Below are positions 3,410-46,320 of a stretch of DNA of 46,320 bases, piece by piece. Below the pieces are notes generated by a model. That model had not been told where the DNA came from and made no database searches. It saw only the letters and a list, made by a program, of their open reading frames with translations. This DNA comes from a virus, in the IMG/VR virus record IMGVR_UViG_3300045988_108118. One strand, 5' to 3'. A program made the position numbers and the translations under genes. How positions within the stretch are numbered: the stretch's first letter is position 1; the number at the start of each line of letters is the position of its first letter.

Positions 3410-3804
3410 TTTGCAACATTGCTCTGTCCGAAGAAGAATTTTCCAAGGCTCTTGCCGCTGGCGCTGATGGCATTGCTCTTTTTGAGTACAAAGACGGTAA
3501 GCCGACCGGCAAAAAGGCTGTTTTCAAGCCCGTAGCCGTTGCTAAGGCTATTCACAAGAAAGACGATGCAAAGCAGGAGAAGAAGAGCGACGACATCATT
3601 CCTGCCTACTACGGCGGCGAGGATAACGCATACGAAGCAATCAAGGTAATTAACGCATGGAATCTTGGCTTTGAACTTGGCAACGCGGTAAAATACATTT
3701 GTCGCGCTGGAAAGAAGCCTGGCAATGAATATGTCAACGAACTTAAAAAAGCACGTTTTTACGTTGATTATGAAATTCAAAAATGTAATGGCAGTAAGGA
3801 GTGA
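3406..3804 (+). CDS. DUF3310-family phage protein.
   Basis: YEAIKVINAWNLGFELGNAVKYICRAGKK...ELKKARFYVDYEI matches the DUF3310 signature as I recall it. Confidence 0.8.
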   Translation: MICNIALSEEEFSKALAAGADGIALFEYKDGKPTGKKAVFKPVAVAKAIHKKDDAKQEKKSDDIIPAYYGGEDNAYEAIKVINAWNLGFELGNAVKYICRAGKKPGNEYVNELKKARFYVDYEIQKCNGSKE

Positions 3805-4429
3805 TTTTTTATTGGGATTTCACGGTGGGATACATGGCGTAATAAAGCCAGAGAACAAAGCGGGGGTTAAATTTGTAAGAAAAGACGATTCTGACAGCCG
3901 AAAATACATTTGTATTTGTCCGTTATGTGGCAAGGAATTTTCGATGTTTGCAAACAGTTATTACGTTGACACAAATTCTTGCAACTGCATTGAAGCGGAA
4001 CGTAAGGAAAATGAAAGGCTGCTCGGAGTATATTCAAACATAAAGACACGCTGTTACAACAAAAAATCATCATCGTATAAAAACTACGGTGGCCGTGGGA
4101 TTAAGATGTGTGATGAATGGAAGAACAGCACGCTTGCTTTTATTCGATGGGCAAATGCAAACGGATACGACAAAAATGCTCCAAATGGACAATGCACAAT
4201 AGAAAGGATTGACCACGATGGAGACTATTGCCCGGAGAACTGTTGTTGGGCCAACAGAGTAGAGCAAGCAAATAATAAAAGGTCTAACATAGTTGTTTTT
4301 GGATTGTCTCTGAAATGGTTTTGCGCGCTAAATGGTCTAAACTACAAGTCAGAGCACGGATGGTTCGTAAAACACAACAGAGATGTAAAACTGTTAGAAG
4401 AAAGGTTAAAAAACAAATGTGGTCTATGA
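3788..4429 (+). CDS. HNH-like (HNH_3-type) freestanding homing-endonuclease-like protein; paralog of 19796-20464.
   Basis: TRCYN..YKNYGGRGIKMCDEW...TIERIDHDGDYCPENCCWANRVEQANNKR. Start is uncertain (ATG 3788 or TTG 3812 after AAGGAG 3796-3801); the ORF track gives 3725. Confidence 0.75.
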   Translation: MAVRSDFLLGFHGGIHGVIKPENKAGVKFVRKDDSDSRKYICICPLCGKEFSMFANSYYVDTNSCNCIEAERKENERLLGVYSNIKTRCYNKKSSSYKNYGGRGIKMCDEWKNSTLAFIRWANANGYDKNAPNGQCTIERIDHDGDYCPENCCWANRVEQANNKRSNIVVFGLSLKWFCALNGLNYKSEHGWFVKHNRDVKLLEERLKNKCGL

Positions 4430-6025: not shown

Positions 6026-6100
6026 TGCGGATTAGCCAAGTGGTAAGGCATGGGACTTTGACTCCCTGATTCGCTGGTTCGAGTCCAGCATTCGCAACCA
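6026..6100 (+). tRNA. tRNA-Gln (anticodon TTG), CCA encoded.
   Basis: Manual cloverleaf: acceptor TGCGGAT/ATTCGCA, D arm GCCAAGTGGTAAGGC, anticodon loop CTTTGAC, T arm GCTGG-TTCGAGT-CCAGC. It aligns along its full length with the E. coli tRNA-Gln layout. Confidence 0.9.
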
Positions 6101-6119
6101 CGTTTACTTGTCCATAAGT

Positions 6120-6147
6120 AACCCTCCTATTCAGCGCGAGGGTTTTC
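6120..6147 (+). terminator. Hairpin plus U-run after tRNA-Gln; possible partial terminator or processing signal.
   Basis: AACCCTC-N11-GAGGGTT followed by TTTCGTGTTCATTTT. Confidence 0.35.
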
Positions 6148-6238
6148 GTGTTCATTTTACCTCGTGCGCGAGCATTTTATACCTCCGCCCCGATATGCGT
6201 ATTCAGTCCGTGGGGTTCAAGACGCAGCGGACTATTAT

Positions 6239-6313
6239 GGCTCTTTAGTTCAACGGTAGAACACCCGGCTCATAACCGGGCAGTCGATGGGTCGACACCA
6301 TCAGGAGCCACCA
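6239..6313 (+). tRNA. tRNA with CAT anticodon (elongator Met or Ile2-type; not initiator-like), CCA encoded.
   Basis: Acceptor GGCTCTT/AGGAGCC, D arm GTTC-AACGGTA-GAAC, anticodon arm CCCGG-CTCATAA-CCGGG, T arm GATGG-GTCGACA-CCATC. The G1-C72 pair argues against an initiator. Confidence 0.9.
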
Positions 6314-6429
6314 CCGGGTTCTCCATGCCCGAATTCTCCTTTATACGTTCTCCAAAGTTTGCCGCAGACTTATAGCAGTTGAGGTTTAGGCATTTCCCTT
6401 AACTGTGAGTTAGAAGCGGCACTTTTTAT

Positions 6430-6505
6430 GCTGGATTATCTCAACTGGTAGAGAACCTGTTTTGTAATCAGGGGGTTCGGGGTTCAAGTCCTCGATTCAG
6501 CACCA
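6430..6505 (+). tRNA. tRNA-Thr (anticodon TGT), CCA encoded.
   Basis: Acceptor GCTGGAT/ATTCAGC, D arm TCTC-AACTGGTA-GAGA, anticodon arm CCTGT-TTTGTAA-TCAGG (one T-T mismatch at 31-39), T arm CGGGG-TTCAAGT-CCTCG. Confidence 0.8.
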
Positions 6506-9016: not shown

Positions 9017-9154
9017 TATAAAATATAAAACCCCCTTAAAATGTTTTTGTTTTACTAGATTCTATAATGGATTATAACACACTCTATTCATTTACTACAT
9101 AGACAATTATCTCATAGTTATAGACTATAGTTGCAATTAGTATAATATTATATA

Positions 9155-9340
9155 ATTGCCAGTTTTTCCCAGTTTTCCCACATTTTGACAACGTGTCACA
9201 TTACATTGCATCGCATCACATTTTCCACCACATTTACATATTTACCATATTTTACCATTTATCCCACTTTTTCCCACTATTCCCTATTTTTTCCAGTATT
9301 GCCAGTTTTTCCCATCTTTGCCAGCCATATCCATTTTCCA
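9155..9340 (+). repeat. Array of T-tract/CCCA motifs phased at about 10 bp; predicted intrinsically bent DNA.
   Basis: T-runs start at 9163, 9173, 9183, 9221, 9233, 9241, 9250, 9258, 9268, 9287, 9306, 9317 and 9334. Exact 17-mer attgccagtttttccca occurs at 9155-9171 and 9298-9314. Confidence 0.8.
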
Positions 9341-12829: not shown

Positions 12830-12885
12830 TTCGATTGCGATTAGCGATTAGCGATTGACTAATTGCGATTTAGCGATTGCGGTTA
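12830..12885 (+). repeat. Heptamer-periodic GCGATT(A/G) array of about 7 units.
   Basis: GCGATT at 12837, 12844, 12851, 12865 and 12873, with degenerate copies at 12832 and 12879. Confidence 0.85.
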
Positions 12886-13305
12886 GTCGCCGAACAGCAT
12901 ATCGACCAGCATCTTTGCGATTTTTTCGCGGGACGGCTTGCCATCCTCTTTGCGATTGCACTCTCCGCAACGCTCTTTCTTTTCCTGCGATTCTTCCGCA
13001 TCCTGCGGTTCATCGTCATTTTCGTCATCGTCATCGCTGTTGATGTTTGCGAGCGCAGCCATTGCGCGAGGGTCGTTTGCAAGGTTCTTTGCGATAAAGG
13101 CAACCTCACGCATAGAAACGCCAGCCTTGTCACACATGATAAGACACATGCCGAGAATGTCGGCATTAGTACCCTTCATGCTACTGAAACCAATGAGTGC
13201 GCCATCGTCGTTTGCATTGTTGTTGAGGATGTGAATTACACCCTTGAAATCATCGTGCTCCGCAAAAAAGTCTTTGCAAACCTTAGAAAATTCATTGATA
13301 GTCAT
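12883..13305 (-). CDS. Acidic protein (140 aa) with a poly-Asp/Glu tail; candidate host-interference protein.
   Basis: RBS AAAGGAG. C-terminal region NSDDDDENDDEPQDAEESQE... Confidence 0.75.
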   Translation of the reverse strand: MTINEFSKVCKDFFAEHDDFKGVIHILNNNANDDGALIGFSSMKGTNADILGMCLIMCDKAGVSMREVAFIAKNLANDPRAMAALANINSDDDDENDDEPQDAEESQEKKERCGECNRKEDGKPSREKIAKMLVDMLFGD

Positions 13306-19795: not shown

Positions 19796-20464
19796 TTATT
19801 TAATTAAATTGTCCAGCTTTAACTTTTTGATTACCTCGTCAACGTCCCAATTTTTTCGATAAAATCTATCGTACAGTGCAGACCTGCTCATTCCTATTTT
19901 ATTCGCAAATTCGGGAATTGTATAAATATTTCCGTTGTATTCAAATTTTCTTACGGTTCTTTTGTTCCTGTTCTGCTCCGCAATAGAAATAAATCTGCAA
20001 TTTTCTGGACAATAATTACCATTTACGTCAATTCTGTCTATTGTTGTGACACCACGGGCTGCAATTTCGTCATATCCGTTTGCAAGTGCCCACGCCCTAA
20101 ACGATTCGTAATCGTTCCATTCATCGCACATTTTAATTCCTCTGCCGCCGTAATCGCAGAATCCTTTATTCCTTTTGTTATAGCATCTTGTCTTTATCGA
20201 AGCCCAAACCCTATAAAGTCTTTCGTGCGTGTGCCCATGTTTGTAATTTCTGGCACTTGTTACTTTACTCGAAACCTCTCTTTGCAGGCATCCGCAACTC
20301 TTTGTATGTCCATCTTTCAAGTGGCTTTTCCCAACTATCACTTTGCGACCACAATCGCATTGGCAAAGCCAAAAAGTCTGGCATTGTTTTGCAGAAAAAT
20401 GGTGATAACTAATAGCAACAAGTCTACCATACCGATTTCCAGAAATGTCCTCTCTGTTTTTCAC
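19796..20464 (-). CDS. HNH-like (HNH_3-type) homing-endonuclease-like protein; paralog of 3788-4429.
   Basis: TRCYNKRNKGFCDYGGRGIKMCDEW...TIDRIDVNGNYCPENCRFISIAEQNRNKR. Confidence 0.75.
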   Translation of the reverse strand: MKNREDISGNRYGRLVAISYHHFSAKQCQTFWLCQCDCGRKVIVGKSHLKDGHTKSCGCLQREVSSKVTSARNYKHGHTHERLYRVWASIKTRCYNKRNKGFCDYGGRGIKMCDEWNDYESFRAWALANGYDEIAARGVTTIDRIDVNGNYCPENCRFISIAEQNRNKRTVRKFEYNGNIYTIPEFANKIGMSRSALYDRFYRKNWDVDEVIKKLKLDNLIK

Positions 20465-21899: not shown

Positions 21900-22089
21900 T
21901 GTCAAGCACCTTCTTTCCCTTTGCATCGTAGCGCGTATTCCACTGAGCGATTTGGTCAGCTCCAACAATGCCACGGAGGCTCAGCAAACAACTGTTTTGC
22001 GGATGACACCAGATAGTGCTGGGCGCTTCGTTTTTTAGGAAGGCACCACAGAACGGGCAAGGCTTTAGTTTGATGTCAATCGTTACCAT
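21892..22089 (-). CDS. Lar-family restriction-alleviation-like protein.
   Basis: Hallmark KLKPCPFCGA near the N-terminus; 65 aa. Confidence 0.7.
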   Translation of the reverse strand: MVTIDIKLKPCPFCGAFLKNEAPSTIWCHPQNSCLLSLRGIVGADQIAQWNTRYDAKGKKVLDND

Positions 22090-22459
22090 TGTCGGTCACC
22101 TCTGCAAGCCAAAATTTTCGTTTGCAATCAAAGCAACTGATTTCGTCGCAATTTCTTTCTGGTCTGTAATCACAACCAATGTATTTAGGGCACAGCCAAA
22201 TGACATCGTTATAAATTTTCGCATTCGGAAACATCTTCAAGAACTCGCTCTGGCGGGTCTTGACGGGGTGGTCTTTCGCCCATTGCTCGACAATCTGCAC
22301 AGCCTTTTCTGCGTATTCGCTTACATCTGCGATACAGTAGACTGCGATACAGTAGACATTGCCACCTTCTTTGCAGTTTTCGTGCAATGGGCATTCATGA
22401 CAATCGGCTTGACTTTCGCACAATCTGCGTAAATTTTTTATACATTCAACTGCGTCCAT
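22076..22459 (-). CDS. Cys-rich early protein (127 aa); first gene of the minus-strand early block.
   Basis: ATG at 22459 follows AAAGGAG. Contains CHECPLHENC and ISCFDCKRKFW. The ORF-track start at 22669 runs through the promoter region. Confidence 0.7.
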   Translation of the reverse strand: MDAVECIKNLRRLCESQADCHECPLHENCKEGGNVYCIAVYCIADVSEYAEKAVQIVEQWAKDHPVKTRQSEFLKMFPNAKIYNDVIWLCPKYIGCDYRPERNCDEISCFDCKRKFWLAEVTDNGND

Positions 22460-22525
22460 AACTATTCTCCTTTTCTTCTTCTGTCGTTTCGATTTTTCTC
22501 GGATTCTTTCGCTTCCGATACATTT

Positions 22526-22554
22526 ATTATACGCTTCTTTCGGATGGAAGTCAA
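22526..22554 (-). promoter_or_regulatory. Early-left promoter.
   Basis: On the minus strand: TTGACT (22549-22554), 17-nt spacer, TATAAT (22526-22531). Confidence 0.8.
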
Positions 22555-22587
22555 TAGTTTTCGGAGAAATATTTTTAAAGATTTTTC

Positions 22588-22616
22588 TTGCAACCATCGA
22601 GCGCGTGTGGTATAAT
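22588..22616 (+). promoter_or_regulatory. Early-right promoter, divergent from and back to back with 22526-22554.
   Basis: TTGCAA (22588-22593), 17-nt spacer, TGgTATAAT (-10 at 22611-22616). Confidence 0.8.
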
Positions 22617-22629
22617 AAAGATGTTATCA

Positions 22630-22735
22630 GAAGTCTTGTTTGGTGTGGTGGCTGAACAAGGCCATACAACTAAATAAGACTTCGAGCTTACTCTGATTGT
22701 ACCCACCACGACAGTCAGCGTAGGCTTTTCTTTTT
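22630..22735 (+). promoter_or_regulatory. Structured leader: hairpin 1 followed by a 15-bp terminator hairpin with a U-tract (attenuator-like), copy 1.
   Basis: GAAGTCTT/AAGACTTC (22630-37 and 22676-83). Stem 22685-22699 pairs with 22712-22726. U-tract at 22726-22735. Loop 7-mer CCACCAC is complementary to GTGGTGG at 22645-51. Confidence 0.6.
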
Positions 22736-22753
22736 ATATTAAGAGGTGCAGGC

Positions 22754-23242
22754 ATGCAGGATTTTATAGAAGATAGTCTCGTAATCATGACGAAAAGCAC
22801 AATGGACGCATTTCTAGCAACGGATTGCTTTTCAGAATTGGTAGGTTTGTATTCCTTTTACTATTACACGGCAAAGTGGCAAAAGACAAATCAACCTAAA
22901 TGCACCACAGAATACGTAGCCAACGGCTTGCACTGGACAGTCCCAAAAGTCAGAAAATTCAAGAAAAAACTTATAGACCTTGGCTTGATTGAGGACGTTG
23001 TAGTCAAAAACGGGAAAGGGCAAGTAGCAGGACACTACATAAAGATAAAATATGTCGTGTCATCGCAGAAAATTAAAGATATTTCTGCGGAAATCCACCC
23101 ATCTGAAATTGCACGGGGTGGAAACGTTCACGGGGTGGACGACAAGGGAGACAAATGCTTAAAGAATAAATATAATAAATGCTTAAAGAAAAATAATAAA
23201 ATGCTTAACGGCAAAAACGAAAAATCAAAGCTGAACTGGTAA
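22754..23242 (+). CDS. Winged-HTH protein (DnaD/replication-organizer N-terminal-like or regulator).
   Basis: RBS AAGAGGTG. YVANGLHWTVPKVRKFKKKLIDLGLIEDVVVKNGKGQVAGHYIKIKY is a wHTH-like pattern. Confidence 0.8.
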   Translation: MQDFIEDSLVIMTKSTMDAFLATDCFSELVGLYSFYYYTAKWQKTNQPKCTTEYVANGLHWTVPKVRKFKKKLIDLGLIEDVVVKNGKGQVAGHYIKIKYVVSSQKIKDISAEIHPSEIARGGNVHGVDDKGDKCLKNKYNKCLKKNNKMLNGKNEKSKLNW

Positions 23243-23371
23243 TCGGCTAAGCAAAAAGAGGTGCTTCGCTCTATTGGCCGAATCCTTGCGAAAGCAAGGA
23301 ACCCGCGAAGCGTAGAAGCCAAAGTTCCGCTTTGTTAAATATTTATCAAAGTAGGTGAGATTGTGCCATCA

Positions 23372-23482
23372 ATGGAGTTCCTTTACGAAAAAGAAATTGT
23401 CTGCAAGGACACGGGAGAAGTCTGTAATGGATACAATTACGCCACTTGTCCGAACTCTTGTCACGTGAGAAAGGTGTGTTAA
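23372..23482 (+). CDS. Possible 36-aa Cys-rich peptide.
   Basis: Translation MEFLYEKEIVCKDTGEVCNGYNYATCPNSCHVRKVC. Weak RBS. Confidence 0.3.
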   Translation: MEFLYEKEIVCKDTGEVCNGYNYATCPNSCHVRKVC

Positions 23483-23484
23483 TC

Positions 23485-23745
23485 ATGGGCAAACGAAACA
23501 CAATCCACAAGTTGCCAGAATACAAAGGTTACAGCGCTTACTACTATTACGATGATTAAGATAAACTTTGGGTCGGTCATGTTTACGATTCGGCTGACGG
23601 AGAGTTTACTGACATGGTTTCATGGGGCGATGAAAACGAAGATGTGATGGAGCATCTGTTTTACAGCATGATTGACGATTACATCAGCTTCAAAAAAGAG
23701 ATGGAGCAAAAATACGGAAAGCCGAAGAATCGGAGAGGTGAATAA
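23485..23745 (+). pseudogene. HicB-like antitoxin-fold gene interrupted by an in-frame TAA at 23557-23559.
   Basis: MGKRNTIHKLPEYKGYSAYYYYDD*DKLWVGHVYDSADGEFTDMVSWGDENEDVMEHLFYSMIDDYISFKKEMEQKYGKP reads as one HicB_lk-type domain across the stop. Confidence 0.6.
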
Positions 23746-23746
23746 G

Positions 23747-23980
23747 ATGGAGTTTAAAACATTACTACTTATTGGCACGGTTGTCGTTTTTGTGATAACT
23801 ATACTTAGGAGAATCGCAAAAGATGAAGTTGTTGATTTGATAGGAGTTTCCGCTTGTGGATTTTTGTTCATTTTAATTCTTGTACTTTCATTTTTATTTG
23901 AAGATAGCAGTGTTTTGTGGGCGATTTTGTTCGGATACTGGGCAGGAAATGCCGTTTGCGTGAATGGAGATGATGACTAA
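23747..23980 (+). CDS. Small membrane protein (77 aa).
   Basis: ATG at 23747 follows GGAGAGGTG. Translation MEFKTLLLIGTVVVFVITIL...GFLFILILVLSFLF. Confidence 0.65.
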   Translation: MEFKTLLLIGTVVVFVITILRRIAKDEVVDLIGVSACGFLFILILVLSFLFEDSSVLWAILFGYWAGNAVCVNGDDD

Positions 23981-24081
23981 TGTTGGGCTTAATTATTATT
24001 TTTGCGTGGGCACTGAAAGTTCCTGCTTTTGTTTTCGCGGCTGCATTGTTTTTTGGCGCTGTTGAGGTGTTTGGCAAATGA
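23980..24081 (+). CDS. Possible 33-aa membrane peptide.
   Basis: TAATG overlap upstream and ATGA overlap downstream. Translation MLGLIIIFAWALKVPAFVFAAALFFGAVEVFGK. Confidence 0.4.
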   Translation: MLGLIIIFAWALKVPAFVFAAALFFGAVEVFGK

Positions 24082-24482
24082 AATACGAAAAAAAGAGTTT
24101 CACGTTTGAAGAACTTGCTCAAATGGCCTACAAGGGGGCTAGGAGCGAGTTTAAGACGCTTTTGCGCGGGTCTGAACAAAGTACCTATCTATCGCTTCGA
24201 TACCTTTACAGGCTCTACCAGACGGGTGGAATCTCAAAGGAAGAAGCAGGCAAGACCAAAGCGCAGATTGCGAGAAGATACGAGAAAGACCGGCTGCGCG
24301 AAGAACAACTTGAAAGCTCAATCAAGGCGTTTGCGCAAGTCGTACTTAGGACGGCAAAGGCCAATGAAGACTACCGCAGAGAAAGAACGCTAGACAATGC
24401 TGACAAGCTGTGCGAAGCAATTGACGGCGTTATGGTTCAGTCGAATATCGCCGAAACAAAGGGTCTTGCAGATGAAGTGTGA
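24078..24482 (+). CDS. Hypothetical protein (134 aa).
   Basis: ORF, translationally coupled to its neighbours. Confidence 0.7.
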   Translation: MKYEKKSFTFEELAQMAYKGARSEFKTLLRGSEQSTYLSLRYLYRLYQTGGISKEEAGKTKAQIARRYEKDRLREEQLESSIKAFAQVVLRTAKANEDYRRERTLDNADKLCEAIDGVMVQSNIAETKGLADEV

Positions 24483-24696
24483 GAAGTGCGGCAGTGATAA
24501 CGTCTACGTCAAGGATAACGTGAACGTGCCGCCAGAGAACACGATTTACCGTAAGCGGATTTGCAAAGATTGCGGTCATCAGTTCCTTACGATTGAATTT
24601 ATCATAGAAAAAGACGATGGTCTTGCGCTGCGCGAATGGAATAAATGGCACAGAGATGGACATAAAAAAGCCACGAAGCATAAACCTCGTGGCTAA
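24472..24696 (+). CDS. NrdR-N-terminal-like zinc-ribbon protein (74 aa).
   Basis: MKCEKCGSDNVYVKD....YRKRICKDCGHQFLTIEF. Confidence 0.7.
   Translation: MKCEKCGSDNVYVKDNVNVPPENTIYRKRICKDCGHQFLTIEFIIEKDDGLALREWNKWHRDGHKKATKHKPRG
24664..24694 (-). terminator. Terminator of the late (minus) block, overlapping the 3' end of the convergent plus-strand gene.
   Basis: AGCCACGA-N10-TCGTGGCT, with TTTTTT following on the minus strand. Confidence 0.7.
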
Positions 24697-24703
24697 GTGT
24701 GAG

Positions 24704-25255
24704 TTAATCTTTGAATTTCTTGTGATACTTGTCTTGAATCTCGGTCAGGTAAACCATGTCGTAATCGCAACATTCGAGTTCGATGAACAGCTTTTCGGCA
24801 AACTTTAATTCGTCTGAAACATCGTGAATCAGTTTCTTGCCGATAAAATCTGCGTAGTCGATTTCTCCAAGTTCAAGCAATTCCCTGTACATTTGAGCGT
24901 AGAACTGGCGAGTGTCATTTTCCCAGTTCACCCACTTTGTCATTGCATCTCTGACAGCACGTCTTTTTGTCGTTGCATCGACATCTTTACGAACGTAGTT
25001 GTACCAGTTTGCAGGGATTTGGCTTGTGACATTTATCTCAGACTTAGGAATCAGCTTGTTTTCGTGGTTGACATAAAAGCTGTCAACTTCAACCATTGCA
25101 CGGGTTTCATCGGCAAAATGATGCTCGTGCATACGCTTAAATCCGTGGAGATTCAGAAAATCAAAATATTGGCGCATCTGGTCGTGGAACATCGTTCCCT
25201 CGATTTGGTGCGCTTTTATTTTGGCAAAGACTTCCTCGACCGTCATCGCAATCAC
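24704..25255 (-). CDS. Hypothetical helical protein, possibly ferritin/Dps-like.
   Basis: 183 aa. LNLHGFKRMHEHHFADETRAMVEVDSFY resembles a ferritin-like helix pair, but the match is weak. Confidence 0.75.
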   Translation of the reverse strand: MIAMTVEEVFAKIKAHQIEGTMFHDQMRQYFDFLNLHGFKRMHEHHFADETRAMVEVDSFYVNHENKLIPKSEINVTSQIPANWYNYVRKDVDATTKRRAVRDAMTKWVNWENDTRQFYAQMYRELLELGEIDYADFIGKKLIHDVSDELKFAEKLFIELECCDYDMVYLTEIQDKYHKKFKD

Positions 25256-25692
25256 TCCTTAACGACTTCAACTGCCACGTTGGAAGTTGTAACAGCCTGA
25301 CCAGTCACGATTACTTGCAAACGGCTGGAAACCTGACCGCGATACACGCGAACAGGAGCGGTGAAAGCAATACCAACGGAATCAGCTGCGGCGGCAGTCA
25401 CAGTTTGTGTTGCGCCAGATACGGCTTGACCGTCCTGATACAGAGTTACCGTCACAGGGCCAGCGGCAGACGCTACAAGCGTTGTATTGACCGAGACAGA
25501 ATAGTATCCAGCCGCATCATTGCAAACGCAAGGACAGCCAGCAGAGCCGATGATAACGCCATTGTTGCCAAGGCGAATAGCGTTGCCGTATTGTCTGACA
25601 GTGTTTGTCAGCGGCAAAGCATCGCCAACAGCCAGAGCGGTTGGTTGTAGCCCATAGGTGAGCTGTACATTGGCATTGGCATCGTCTAACAC
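25252..25692 (-). CDS. Hypothetical beta-rich protein (BclA-C/C1q-like?).
   Basis: 146 aa, Ala/Val/Thr/Gly-rich. GTG start. Confidence 0.7.
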   Translation of the reverse strand: MLDDANANVQLTYGLQPTALAVGDALPLTNTVRQYGNAIRLGNNGVIIGSAGCPCVCNDAAGYYSVSVNTTLVASAAGPVTVTLYQDGQAVSGATQTVTAAAADSVGIAFTAPVRVYRGQVSSRLQVIVTGQAVTTSNVAVEVVKE

Positions 25693-44065: not shown

Positions 44066-45749
44066 GCAGGCAGAAGCCAAAGTCAGAATTATGAAGTTCA
44101 ACAAGCTGGTTCGAGACAATCCGACAGATGTTAAACTCGTAGAAGCAGCGCTCTCCGCTTGCGCAAATGCAACCGCAAACGATGACGGGACGTTTAACAC
44201 AACAGGAGAGGATAACGAATTTGCGTTTAAATCAGCGATGAATCTGTACAACGTCTGCCTTTGGAACATCGCAAACACGAGAAATCTGGATGAAAAGAGA
44301 AAGTGGGTCGCTCTGGCAAAGAGTTCTCTGCTGTATTTGGCTCACAAGTATTTTGATTCGTTCATGCTTTACTTGGAGTTCGACCGTAGGCCAGACAAGA
44401 GATTCTACGCTCCGCGACGGAAACAGTTGAAGCGCATTGTTGACGGTTTCCAAGATGTGGCTGACGGAAAGATTGACCTATTGACAGTTAGCCAGCCGAA
44501 GCGTACCGGCAAGACTACCCTTGGCCTAATGTTCGTTATTTGGAGAGCGGGGCTACTACCTGATAAGTCGTGCTTGCTGGCTGGCCGTGGAGATTCTCTG
44601 GTAAAGTCGTTCTATGATGAATGTCTTAACATCATGCAAGACAAAGCAACTTACAACTATTGGGATGTTTTTCCGGGCTGCACGATTGCAAATACCAACG
44701 CAGACCAAAAAACTATTGACCTTAACTCAAAAAAGCGTTTTAGTAGCATCGTATGCAAGTCACTTAGCGGACAAATGACCGGCGTCGTCGAGGCTTCTAA
44801 TATTCTATATATTGATGACCCCGTTCAAGACCAGCTTGAAGCGAGAAATATTGAACGTTTAAACACTCTTTGGGCTTCTGTCTCTGATGACTGTATGGGT
44901 CGCCGCAAAGAGGGAGTGCCAATTATTGCGCAGGGAACTCGATTCAGTATCAATGACCCGATTGGTAGGCTTCAATCAATTGCACCGCAGATGGGGTGGA
45001 GAGTTCGCATTGTAGAAGTGCCAGCACTTGACCCCGTTACCGATGAAAGCAATTTCCATTATAAGTACGGATTGGGGTTTAGCACCGAATATTATCGAAA
45101 CGAACGGAAAATGCTTGCTGATATTCAGTGGCAAAGTGAATATCAACAGCGACCAATTGAGGAACGCGGTACGGTGTTCAGCCGAAACGATTTACAGTAT
45201 TACGACAAACTACCAGATTTGGAGTGGGATGCTATTCTTGCGGTAACAGACCCGTCCGAGGGTAAAGGCGATAATACCTGCATGATAGTTGCTTTCGTAT
45301 CTGGAACGGAAGCCTACATCGAGGACGTTGTGTTCTCAAATGCCCTGCCGGAATATAATGCGCCTAAGTGCGGAATTATGTGCGTTAAGTATGGAGTTAA
45401 GATTTGTCAAATCGAATCTAACGCTAACGGTTTACTATTCGCTGAAAAGGTCGAGACTCAAATTAAAGCCATGAACGGTAGAACCAGCGTAAGAACGAAA
45501 CGCACAACAGCTAACAAGGAAACAAAGATTATTGTTGCATCCGACAATATTCGTAACCATTTCTGGTTCAAGAATCCTAACTACTTAGACCCGGCAAGCG
45601 AATACGCACAATATCTCAGAAATTTGTGGTCTTACAGCCAAGTTTCCAAAAATCTGACCGATGACGGCCCGGACTGTACCGCCATGATGGAGAACATGAT
45701 AGGAACACTGACAGCAAGTAAAGTGACCGCCTTTAAAAGACCGTTTTGA
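44031..45749 (+). CDS. terL: Terminase large subunit.
   Basis: Walker A-like QPKRTGKTT, Walker B ILYIDDP, C-terminal nuclease-type region AVTDPSEGKGDN...; RBS GAGGTG. Confidence 0.9.
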   Translation: MLNTPKMARTPEQAEAKVRIMKFNKLVRDNPTDVKLVEAALSACANATANDDGTFNTTGEDNEFAFKSAMNLYNVCLWNIANTRNLDEKRKWVALAKSSLLYLAHKYFDSFMLYLEFDRRPDKRFYAPRRKQLKRIVDGFQDVADGKIDLLTVSQPKRTGKTTLGLMFVIWRAGLLPDKSCLLAGRGDSLVKSFYDECLNIMQDKATYNYWDVFPGCTIANTNADQKTIDLNSKKRFSSIVCKSLSGQMTGVVEASNILYIDDPVQDQLEARNIERLNTLWASVSDDCMGRRKEGVPIIAQGTRFSINDPIGRLQSIAPQMGWRVRIVEVPALDPVTDESNFHYKYGLGFSTEYYRNERKMLADIQWQSEYQQRPIEERGTVFSRNDLQYYDKLPDLEWDAILAVTDPSEGKGDNTCMIVAFVSGTEAYIEDVVFSNALPEYNAPKCGIMCVKYGVKICQIESNANGLLFAEKVETQIKAMNGRTSVRTKRTTANKETKIIVASDNIRNHFWFKNPNYLDPASEYAQYLRNLWSYSQVSKNLTDDGPDCTAMMENMIGTLTASKVTAFKRPF

Positions 45750-45752
45750 TGG

Positions 45753-45781
45753 TTGACTTTTGCAGCAAAATGTGCTATCAT
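45753..45781 (+). promoter_or_regulatory. Promoter for the wrap-around wHTH gene.
   Basis: TTGACT (45753-45758), 17-nt spacer, TATCAT (45776-45781). Confidence 0.75.
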
Positions 45782-45790
45782 ACTGGTATA

Positions 45791-45897
45791 GGTTCTATTA
45801 GGAAGTTGCGGGCCGGATAGACCCGAAAACTGAATAGAGCCTAACAAGAACAGCTATCAAGATGTAACCGCAACTACGTCTTGGTGGCTGTTTTTGT
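45791..45897 (+). promoter_or_regulatory. Structured leader: hairpin 1 followed by a 16-bp terminator hairpin with a U-tract, copy 2.
   Basis: GGTTCTATT/AATAGAGCC (45791-99 and 45833-41). Stem 45849-45864 pairs with 45877-45892. U-tract at 45891-45895. Loop 7-mer CCGCAAC is complementary to GTTGCGG at 45805-11. Confidence 0.6.
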
Positions 45898-45919
45898 TAT
45901 CAAATGGAGATGTATAACA

Positions 45920-46320
45920 ATGATTATGCGCACCGAGAAAAACAAAAATTACACAGTGATGGGCAACTATCATCTGCGGGACAAAGAATTGTCTCTAAAA
46001 GCCAAGGGATTGTTGTCTATTATGTTGAGTTTGCCTGACGGCTGGAACTTCTCAACACAGGGGCTTACTACGCTTTCAAGTGACGGAGAGACAGCAATTC
46101 GGTCTACACTCAAAGAATTGGAGCAAAAAGGCTACCTAAAGCGCAATAAAGTACGTATTAACGGTAAAATTGTTGATTGGGAGTATGTTGTCTACGAGCA
46201 AAAACATCCATGTGTTCCAGTTGATGAAAGTCCAGTTGATGAAAACGTACATGTGAATAATCGCACCCAATTAAATACTAAAGAAATAAATACTAAAGAA
46301 ATAAATAATTTCTCAACATC
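45920..46320 (+). CDS. 5' part of the wHTH replication-initiator-like gene; continues at base 25 of the window.
   Basis: MIMRTEKNKNYTVMGNYHLRDKELSLKAKGLLSIMLSLPDGWNFSTQGLTTLSSDGETAIRSTLKELEQKGYLKR. The ORF is open to the window end. Confidence 0.8.
   Translation, partial: MIMRTEKNKNYTVMGNYHLRDKELSLKAKGLLSIMLSLPDGWNFSTQGLTTLSSDGETAIRSTLKELEQKGYLKRNKVRINGKIVDWEYVVYEQKHPCVPVDESPVDENVHVNNRTQLNTKEINTKEINNFST
46273..46302 (+). repeat. 15-nt x2 in-frame tandem duplication (NTKEI x2).
   Basis: aaatactaaagaaat is read twice, followed by a partial third copy. Confidence 0.9.

Follow-up and report, generated by a model that had tools for sequence, protein, structure and literature searches.

Introduction

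In plasmid ColE1, the seven-nucleotide complementary loops of RNA I and RNA II kiss, and the nascent target responds only within a limited period of its folding. In the rep leaders of the IncI-alpha and IncB plasmids, a hairpin loop pairs with a distal site in the same mRNA and an RNA with the same sequence competes; in the P4 CI and P1/P7 c4 RNAs, compensatory differences define immunity types. Here we examine a leader RNA that occurs twice in the viral DNA of IMG/VR record IMGVR_UViG_3300045988_108118, a stretch of 46,320 nucleotides (nt) that is referred to below, at its full length, as the window. Copy 1 (22588-22753) and copy 2 (45753-45919) each lie between a promoter and a gene resembling a replication initiator, and each contains a sequence of seven bases (the 7-mer) whose exact complement sits in the loop of an intrinsic terminator further downstream. 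The P4 CI RNA is known to block the expression of replication genes by premature termination, and both this RNA and the short form of IsrK act on their own transcript (PMC4825925). Mutations in recognition loops are known to create new plasmid incompatibility groups (PMC4485353).

Our results suggest how the two leaders may work. It is possible, at what we judge to be somewhat less than an even chance, that the terminated leader RNA is its own antisense-like regulator and that a loop kiss on a short-lived hairpin of nascent transcripts (hairpin A) controls read-through into the replication genes.

Results

Copy 1 (139 nt) folds into two adjacent hairpins at -55.6 kcal/mol, compared with a mean of -33.4 for shuffled sequences (z = -6.2), and copy 2 reaches -54.0 kcal/mol compared with -28.1 for its shuffles (z = -7.2). 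As the plus strand folds 11-23 kcal/mol better than the reverse complement in all eight representatives, the structure is strand specific and lies at the level of RNA. An earlier note on this DNA had claimed a functional cis-acting RNA; the structured-RNA part of that claim is borne out by the z scores and the strand-specific fold, and, as far as sequence can tell, the leader is supported as a functional, strand-specific structured RNA. On reading the window, every element of both copies was found where the earlier note had placed it.

Relatives of the leader were gathered by protein-guided and pattern-guided scans of IMG/VR and metagenomes, and also with a covariance model (R1) and a structural descriptor, which at its strict setting gave no matches in reversed-sequence controls. 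They fall into five sequence classes with eight different 7-mer pairs (Table 1), all of which are complementary, the changes being compensatory on both sides. In an alignment of 17 distinct sequences (A4), the kissing helix between the 7-mer and the terminator loop is 99.2% paired. The four outer pairs are invariant, the three central ones differ only where both sides have changed together, and a shift of the partner column by 1-3 positions lowers the pairing to 27-45%; three further 7-mer pairs occur in classes 4 and 5. Compensatory covariation, which had been proposed from the two copies of the window, is thus confirmed, and the helices as well as the 7-mer pairing are kept in relatives, with covariation across the five classes. 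In every member the partners lie 58-63 nt apart within one transcript. For a single sequence, 0.2-6% of shuffled loops attain a 7-nt match of the terminator-loop segment to hairpin 1; such a match is only moderately unlikely in one sequence, and the case rests on the eight different complementary pairs in relatives. Variation within class 1 is found in 43-65% of the columns of the apical/loop module as against 7% (2 of 28 columns) of the basal stem. The two leaders of each genome carry different 7-mer pairs, and the type of 7-mer is independent of which initiator gene follows.

The 5' strand of the first hairpin, S1, has two alternative 3' partners, a proximal one (S1'), with which it forms hairpin A, and a distal one (S1''), with which it forms hairpin B. 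Hairpin A has 9-13 base pairs (bp) and a loop of 6-10 nt that is essentially the 7-mer (helix 22635-43/22652-60 in copy 1); in classes 3, 4, and 5b the 7-mer makes up the whole loop, the classic geometry of a kissing hairpin. In hairpin B of copy 1, GAAGTCTT (22630-37) pairs with AAGACTTC (22676-83) within a helix of 14 bp in all (22630-43/22670-83). All nine core positions pair in both hairpins in nearly every representative of the first four classes, with one mismatch in copy 2, and the same early hairpin A was found in class 5. Three-way covariation of S1, S1', and S1'' is seen at 6 of the 9 positions, the gap between S1' and S1'' is constant at 8-9 nt, and S1'' contains AACTRAATA, a motif conserved across classes. 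On stepwise folding, hairpin A is the minimum-energy structure at ~40-52 nt and hairpin B from ~58 nt on, in all classes. The support for two alternative folds in this leader is unusually clear.

The long hairpin B pairs 4-6 of the seven bases of the 7-mer. Its sequestor covaries with the 7-mer and mimics the terminator loop (CCGUAC versus the loop CCGUCAC in L117, CCCG..AACU versus CCGCAACU in class 2, and GGCAUGAA versus GCGCGAA in L274). By computation the 7-mer is 72-100% unpaired at 40-48 nt and 16-57% from 55 nt on; for the terminator loop of the finished RNA the corresponding figure is 81-100%, with an unpaired probability of 0.99 in copy 1. The earlier note had put the 7-mer in the loop of hairpin 1; this is so only in the transient hairpin A, the 7-mer being masked in the stable hairpin B. 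Unmasking the 7-mer in hairpin B costs 6.7-10.5 kcal/mol and the 7-bp duplex yields -9.1 to -11.1 kcal/mol; by these modeled energies the masked and kissing states appear nearly balanced in every class. The barrier from A to B, which was obtained with a path heuristic and is a rough figure, is mostly 6-8 kcal/mol (range, 5.8-18.6; 10-19 in 3 of 9 representatives). A barrier of 6-8 kcal/mol would mean refolding within a fraction of a second, before the cis loop, at least 35 nt downstream, is transcribed. As hairpin A would then be gone by the time the cis loop is made, its only partner during its lifetime would be an RNA made earlier.

The transcription signals, the alternative hairpins, the masking of the 7-mer, the exposed terminator loop, the covariation, and the lack of an antisense promoter within the copy 1 leader are directly supported by the data. 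The promoter of copy 1 was also listed independently by a promoter scan; it is, like that of copy 2, of the sigma-70 type, has a predicted transcription start near 22623, and is kept in relatives as TTGCAAGCGCAA...TGCTATAAT. The terminator stem of copy 1 comprises 15 positions (12 Watson-Crick pairs, 2 G-U pairs, and 1 mismatch), and its loop presents CCACCAC (22703-09), complementary to GTGGTGG. In copy 2, TTTTTGTT stands directly after the terminator stem, and the complementarity between GTTGCGG and CCGCAAC (45868-74) actually extends over 8 nt. The terminators lie 14-25 nt upstream of the ribosome-binding site (RBS), and the stems stop 27-28 nt before the ATG in both copies. Because a terminator precedes the downstream gene, which has no promoter of its own, this gene would be expressed only by read-through; the spacing of promoter, terminator, and RBS leaves no space for another promoter, which supports the proposed control of read-through.

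Table 1. Positions of the elements of both leaders and of the genes behind them, and the 7-mer pairs of the five classes
Feature	Position	Strand	Details
Copy 1 promoter	22588-22616	+	TTGCAA 22588-93, 17-nt spacer, TATAAT 22611-16, extended -10 TG 22608-09
Copy 1 S1	22630-22643	+	GAAGTCTTGTTTGG; 5' strand common to both alternative hairpins; core 22635-43 pairs with S1' or S1''
Copy 1 7-mer	22645-22651	+	GTGGTGG; looped in early hairpin A, partly paired in late hairpin B
Copy 1 S1'	22652-22660	+	CTGAACAAG; proximal partner of S1, with which it forms metastable hairpin A
Copy 1 sequestor	22660-22667	+	GGCCATAC; pairs with 3' part of 7-mer in hairpin B; imperfect copy of terminator loop
Copy 1 S1''	22670-22683	+	CTAAATAAGACTTC; distal partner of S1; closes stable long hairpin B
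Copy 1 intrinsic terminator	22685-22735	+	Stem 22685-99/22712-26, 12-nt loop 22700-11, U-tract 22727-35
Copy 1 Shine-Dalgarno (SD) sequence	22741-22748	+	AAGAGGTG; ATG at 22754
rep1	22754-23242	+	162 amino acids (aa); winged helix-turn-helix (wHTH), DnaD/O-like; lysine/asparagine-rich (K/N-rich) tail ending KLNW
Copy 2 promoter	45753-45781	+	TTGACT 45753-58, 17-nt spacer, TGcTATCAT 45773-81
Copy 2 hairpin 1	45790-45842	+	S1 45790-45802, 7-mer GTTGCGG 45805-11, S1' 45813-21, S1'' 45830-42
Copy 2 sequestor	45822-45831	+	CCCGAAAACT
Copy 2 terminator	45850-45898	+	Stem 45850-64/45877-91, loop 45865-76, U-tract 45891-98
Copy 2 SD sequence	45906-45909	+	GGAG; ATG at 45920
rep2	45920-46320, continuing at 25-583 (circular)	+	~320 aa; HTH_36 domain
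Class 1 pairs			GTGGTGG/CCACCAC, GTGATGG/CCATCAC, GTGACGG/CCGTCAC, GTAGTGG/CCACTAC; like copy 1
Class 2 pair			GTTGCGG/CCGCAAC; like copy 2
Class 3 pair			As class 2, extended to 9 nt; terminator loop exactly 7 nt (L008, L099, L104)
Class 4 pair			AACCCGC/GCGGGTT (L013)
Class 5 pairs			TTGCGCC/GGCGCAA (L273/L275), TTCGCGC/GCGCGAA (L274)

No minus-strand sigma-70-type promoter was found within the copy 1 leader in a scan covering 21900-25400, and the minus-strand reading of the conserved part has no -35/-10 pair. The nearest minus-strand promoter site (22554-22526) lies upstream of the copy 1 leader and reads away from it. A third site for either 7-mer was not found in the window or in 11 related loci. 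No leader open reading frame (ORF) conserved between classes was seen on reading the sequences; a leader peptide was rejected, the short UUG-initiated frames of class 1 being conserved neither in frame nor across classes. A classic antiterminator was rejected on stepwise folds, locked-A folds, and duplex searches (S1'' and the 5' leader against the terminator and RBS), which gave only non-conserved A-rich/U-rich pairings. With hairpin A locked in silico, the terminator was never disrupted and the RBS was not consistently hidden. No pairing competes with the terminator stem, so that a terminator/antiterminator switch, one of the actions suggested in the earlier note, does not stand.

The terminator had been placed within the leader of a wHTH gene, which holds, and the gene is moreover replication-initiator-like. 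The rep1 product matches PHROG 186 weakly; in phages of Bacillus, Staphylococcus, and Clostridium, the annotation of rep2 relatives reads replication initiation protein or DnaD-like helicase loader. By their sequences, the genes behind the leaders appear to encode wHTH proteins of the O/DnaD-like replication-initiator kind. Iteron-like direct repeats are present in the 3' part of rep1 (CACGGGGTGGA twice at 23112-39 and AAATGCTTAAAGAA three times at 23153-23212) and in that of rep2 (TCCAGTTGATGAAAG twice at 46216-44 and TAAATACTAAAGAAA in 2.4 copies at 46272-46307); these repeats encode the K/N-rich protein tails and are possible replication origins. In relatives, at least five unrelated N-terminal domains are found behind one and the same leader class, and even behind one 7-mer type, so that the leader is an autonomous module which has not coevolved with the protein. 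Autoregulation by the downstream protein was rejected, as unrelated initiator genes follow the same leader and 7-mer types. In some relatives (L116/L124 and L267/L270), a class 1 leader is followed by a 61-aa wHTH fragment (MVTITRQ...) and then by a gene of the MKLFVNG type, which suggests recombination or gene decay at the module boundary.

A further metagenome scan returned only the four class 1 variants already found. Cultured phages gave no blastn match and none by tblastn with rep1, and such a leader was not found with the rep2 relatives of cultured and fecal phages. The family is rare in the collections searched, where its members are contigs of one clade of human-gut phages plus a few from other metagenomes. 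A loose pattern (GGATAN{5,9}AAAAYTRAATA) was discarded, returning mostly random loci, as were L052 and a second site in L164, which fit a relaxed descriptor without having hairpin B; controls also matched at that setting. L052 (~2750-2945) has a 7-nt hairpin loop, AATGTGG, and further downstream a terminator-like hairpin whose loop contains the complement CCACATT; this hairpin pair may be a distant analogue or a chance match. In L013, an extra simple hairpin (CAGATATTCAA...TTGAATATCTG, 2410-2440) precedes the class 4 leader and duplicates S1 and S1'' without the apical module; class 5 leaders also have an extra 5' hairpin. Upstream of a rep2-like gene in L084 (~2850-2990) there is a different leader, with a long hairpin and no kissing 7-mer. 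The loop of this hairpin holds a second promoter-like site (TTGACA...TGcTATACT), and a G/C-rich terminator follows.

The window is a complete circular contig, since the same 24 nt (AGAAATAAATAATTTCTCAACATC) stand at 1-24 and 46297-46320 and rep2 spans the junction. The genes recognized in it encode TerL, a portal protein, a DnaB-like helicase, a DnaD-like protein, RusA, an exonuclease, a dUTPase, a thymidylate synthase, and two HNH endonucleases, together with three tRNAs, and the phage has the look of a lytic gut phage of the siphovirus type. Neither an integrase nor a repressor was recognized among the genes of the window, and a search for the motif as class-specific DNA patterns in 185,579 bacterial and archaeal GTDB genomes gave 0 matches; both results argue against lysogeny. 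Copy 2 heads an operon after terL, consisting of rep2 followed by nucleotide-metabolism genes, and its promoter comes directly after the terL stop codon at 45749.

A strong divergent promoter on the minus strand (22526-22554; TTGACT, 17-nt spacer, TATAAT) lies 34 nt upstream of the copy 1 promoter and drives a leftward replication/recombination operon, whose first gene (22076-22456, 126 aa) has no family match. The tRNAs, at 6026-6505, are Gln (TTG), Met (CAT), and Thr (TGT). The two HNH endonuclease genes (3725-4429 and 19796-20464) both belong to PHROG 374 and lie on opposite strands. Dense short tandem repeats were seen as TTTTCCCA-type 10-mers over ~180 nt (9136-9314) and as CGATTAG repeated eight times (12832-12886); both arrays are apparently non-coding or weakly coding and may serve as another origin or as an array of protein-binding sites. 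Within a 328-aa ORF (1035-2021), a 24-nt sequence is repeated perfectly in tandem, in 3.1 copies (1301-1375).

Discussion

The sequence of events that we propose begins with a promoter-proximal RNA of ~105-112 nt, which would stop at the intrinsic terminator directly before the replication-initiator-like gene. The nascent RNA would first fold hairpin A and show the 7-mer in its loop; ~25 nt later, the second partner strand would displace hairpin A to form the long hairpin B, in which the sequestor masks the 7-mer. The terminator hairpin would be formed last, with a loop that permanently shows the exact complement of the 7-mer. Finished RNAs might then behave like plasmid countertranscripts, though coming from the same strand and the same promoter: the terminator loop of a finished RNA would kiss hairpin A of nascent transcripts during its brief lifetime, and the kiss would alter the fate of the nascent transcript, most likely towards more termination or a lower output of the replication gene. 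The sequestor would stop finished RNAs from pairing with themselves or with each other. The outcome would be a feedback that follows the dosage of the RNA and hence the number of genome copies and the time since infection. Specificity would be set by the three middle bases of the 7-mer pair, so that the two leaders of a genome, and related co-infecting phages, could work without cross-talk. We infer the pairing in trans and its effect on read-through, and the negative direction of that effect by analogy; the kinetic logic would mirror that of plasmid countertranscripts and ColE1. Of the readings considered, this is the simplest to employ all the conserved features, and it agrees with the concentration of class 1 variation in the apical/loop module, with the different pairs of the two leaders of a genome, and with the constant position of the element ahead of replication-initiator genes. 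Still more tentatively, the whole may be seen as a self-antisense circuit that needs neither an antisense gene nor a protein, with which the phage would count its early transcripts or genome copies and gate its initiators through a three-base code.

Several points weigh against this proposal. One natural class 1 variant has GTGATGG facing CCATAAC, with one central G.A mismatch. The variant was seen in two assemblies (L115, 10477-10587; L257, region 3470-3520) and differs from L118 in nothing else; it represents either an allele that has lost the pairing or an intermediate in evolution, and the mismatch suggests that the 7-mer pairing is not strictly essential. Classes 2 and 3 share one 7-mer, and class 2 shows no variation. 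The comparative set is small, with ~20 distinct sequences, mostly from one phage lineage and with no cultured phage among them. The folding kinetics come from a path heuristic and would best be read as a rough estimate. No output step is visible in the modeled folds for a kiss in trans on hairpin A, which is the weak point of the proposal. Finally, the cost of unmasking is close to the gain from the duplex, so that a pseudoknot in cis would be thermodynamically possible in the finished RNA.

The last of these points is the basis of the strongest alternative, a pseudoknot attenuator acting only in cis, in which the 7-mer leaves the sequestor and pairs with its own terminator loop, and thereby stabilizes, speeds, or hinders the terminator hairpin. 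We consider this unlikely, although several observations are in its favor. Both partners are present in one transcript at a near-constant distance in every member, and the masking and kissing energies are balanced in all classes; with such a balance, the level of read-through would respond to the speed of the polymerase, to temperature, to Mg2+, or to a host factor, for example NusA. Since hairpin 1 lies next to the terminator and is about as long, the two could pack side by side; an additional argument for such a fold, from linker length versus the difference in stem length, was dropped, as four classes gave no clear trend. In cobalamin riboswitches, too, a kissing contact under ligand control is known to join the loop of the aptamer to a hairpin of the expression platform. 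However, action in cis leaves unexplained why a hairpin that displays the 7-mer is conserved when it is predicted to be gone before the cis loop exists, and why there is a sequestor that rivals the pairing supposed to be functional. Since the loop pairing leaves the terminator stem intact, any effect on termination would have to be tertiary, and there is no reason for variation to concentrate in the specificity bases. Of the cis action suggested in the earlier note, therefore, the pairing itself stands, whereas a purely cis effect is doubtful, the display hairpin being predicted to refold before the cis loop is transcribed.

It is also conceivable, but rather improbable, that the leader is an antitermination site like nut or put, at which the folded RNA and its loop-loop contact bind a phage or host factor, or the polymerase, and so cause read-through. 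The genome has two copies, each between a strong early-type promoter and the first terminator and before replication genes, and expression of these genes needs read-through; nutL/nutR and putL/putR are arranged likewise, after an early promoter and ahead of the first terminator. Yet no N-, Q-, or LoaP-like protein was recognized in the window, and the conserved structure here includes the terminator, whereas the terminators that nut and put act on are separate elements further downstream. A binding site would also be expected to have constant loop bases, whereas the loop is here the most variable part and changes in pairs.

Even less probable is a stable small RNA with some other role, whose loops would serve for intermolecular assembly, as in phi29 pRNA, or for nuclease resistance, the gene being expressed by terminator leak. 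A strong promoter followed by a strong terminator does predict an abundant, discrete RNA, covarying and mutually complementary loops are a hallmark of pRNA, and copy 2 comes directly after terL. Against this, the 7-mer is masked in the finished RNA, copy 1 lies away from the packaging genes of a phage with ordinary terminase and portal, there is no Rfam pRNA match, and the constant link is with replication-initiator genes of several unrelated types. A DNA-level feature, with inverted repeats or hairpins as protein-binding sites or as a single-strand origin, is hardly credible although the element adjoins genes with iteron-like repeats and S1' and S1'' resemble direct repeats ~18 bp apart: it was rejected on the strand asymmetry of the fold, whose helices rely on G-T pairs, and the 7-mer type does not follow the type of the neighboring DNA-binding protein; the element also sits exactly between promoter and RBS.

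If true, the proposed regulation of nascent transcripts by finished ones would be a minimal RNA-only feedback device, with the regulator loop, a time-limited target, a mask, and a terminator in one transcript. It would extend kissing-loop control of copy number, known in plasmids and P4, to apparently lytic gut phages, and also to a design whose regulator is a sense copy of its target. The 7-mer pairs, orthogonal by nature, could be used as programmable attenuators and would offer a ready test of how loop-loop specificity evolves. Whatever the mechanism, the leader is a good model for co-transcriptional folding.

How does the leader compare with described RNAs? The earlier note had recognized no known family in it, and Rfam 15 agrees: at gathering thresholds only 3 tRNAs were found in the whole window, copy 1 gave nothing at E<=10, copy 2 only sub-threshold microRNA hairpin noise, and five relatives gave nothing at E<=0.1. 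There is no riboswitch-like core, as almost nothing unpaired is conserved across classes besides AACTRAATA, which is helical in hairpin B, and no competing platform was seen. For phi29 pRNA, there was no RF00044 match in the window or in the copies, TerL and portal are ordinary, and the 7-mer is masked. HK022 put and lambda nut are comparable in arrangement only, having two copies that each follow an early-type promoter. ColE1 differs in that an antisense RNA, RNA I, acts on a primer for replication, whereas here both loops are on one sense RNA and the leader precedes a protein-coding initiator gene. The IncI-alpha and IncB leaders are alike in that the loop of a rep-leader hairpin pairs with a distal complementary sequence in the same mRNA; in those plasmids, however, the distal site abuts the RBS and there are a leader peptide and an antisense competitor, none of which is present here, the partner being the terminator loop, 32-38 nt upstream of the SD sequence.

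Closer likenesses are found among attenuators and self-targeting RNAs. Countertranscript attenuation in pT181, pIP501, and pAMbeta1 likewise has a terminator just upstream of the rep start codon, and in pT181-type systems, too, loops kiss on the nascent leader within a short window and the loop bases set the specificity (PMC4485353). Those systems have an antisense promoter and gene, whereas none was found in the copy 1 leader and the regulator would here be the terminator loop of the same sense transcript; they also rely on mutually exclusive preemptor and terminator pairing, whereas the terminator is here kept in stepwise and locked-A folds. In the P4 CI RNA (seqA/seqC) and P1/P7 c4, the regulator likewise comes from the same untranslated leader and pairs with complementary leader sequences (PMC4825925), and in our leader, too, regulator and target would share one leader with compensatory variation, seen in eight pairs and five classes. 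However, P4 CI and c4 are processed from longer transcripts of temperate enterobacterial elements, whereas the RNA described here would be a primary terminated transcript with a 7-bp kissing loop, in a phage with no lysogeny genes seen and with no Rfam match. IsrK of the Gifsy-1 prophage resembles it in that a short terminated RNA and a read-through mRNA both start from a single promoter, and also resembles our proposal in that the long form is acted on in trans by the short one, which is in competition with its own copy in cis (PMC4825925). IsrK pairs over a long linear stretch, which opens the RBS and activates translation, whereas our leader would make a loop-loop contact of 7 nt with a target hairpin that is metastable; the two sequences are not similar. 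Because the antisense gene and the preemptor of the pT181/pIP501 type were not found, nor any homology of sequence or structure to the P4 CI or IsrK RNAs, nor evidence of lysogeny, the leader would represent a new RNA family. By analogy, this undescribed structured RNA would work most like the antisense attenuation of plasmid rep genes combined with the self-targeting of the P4 CI and IsrK RNAs.

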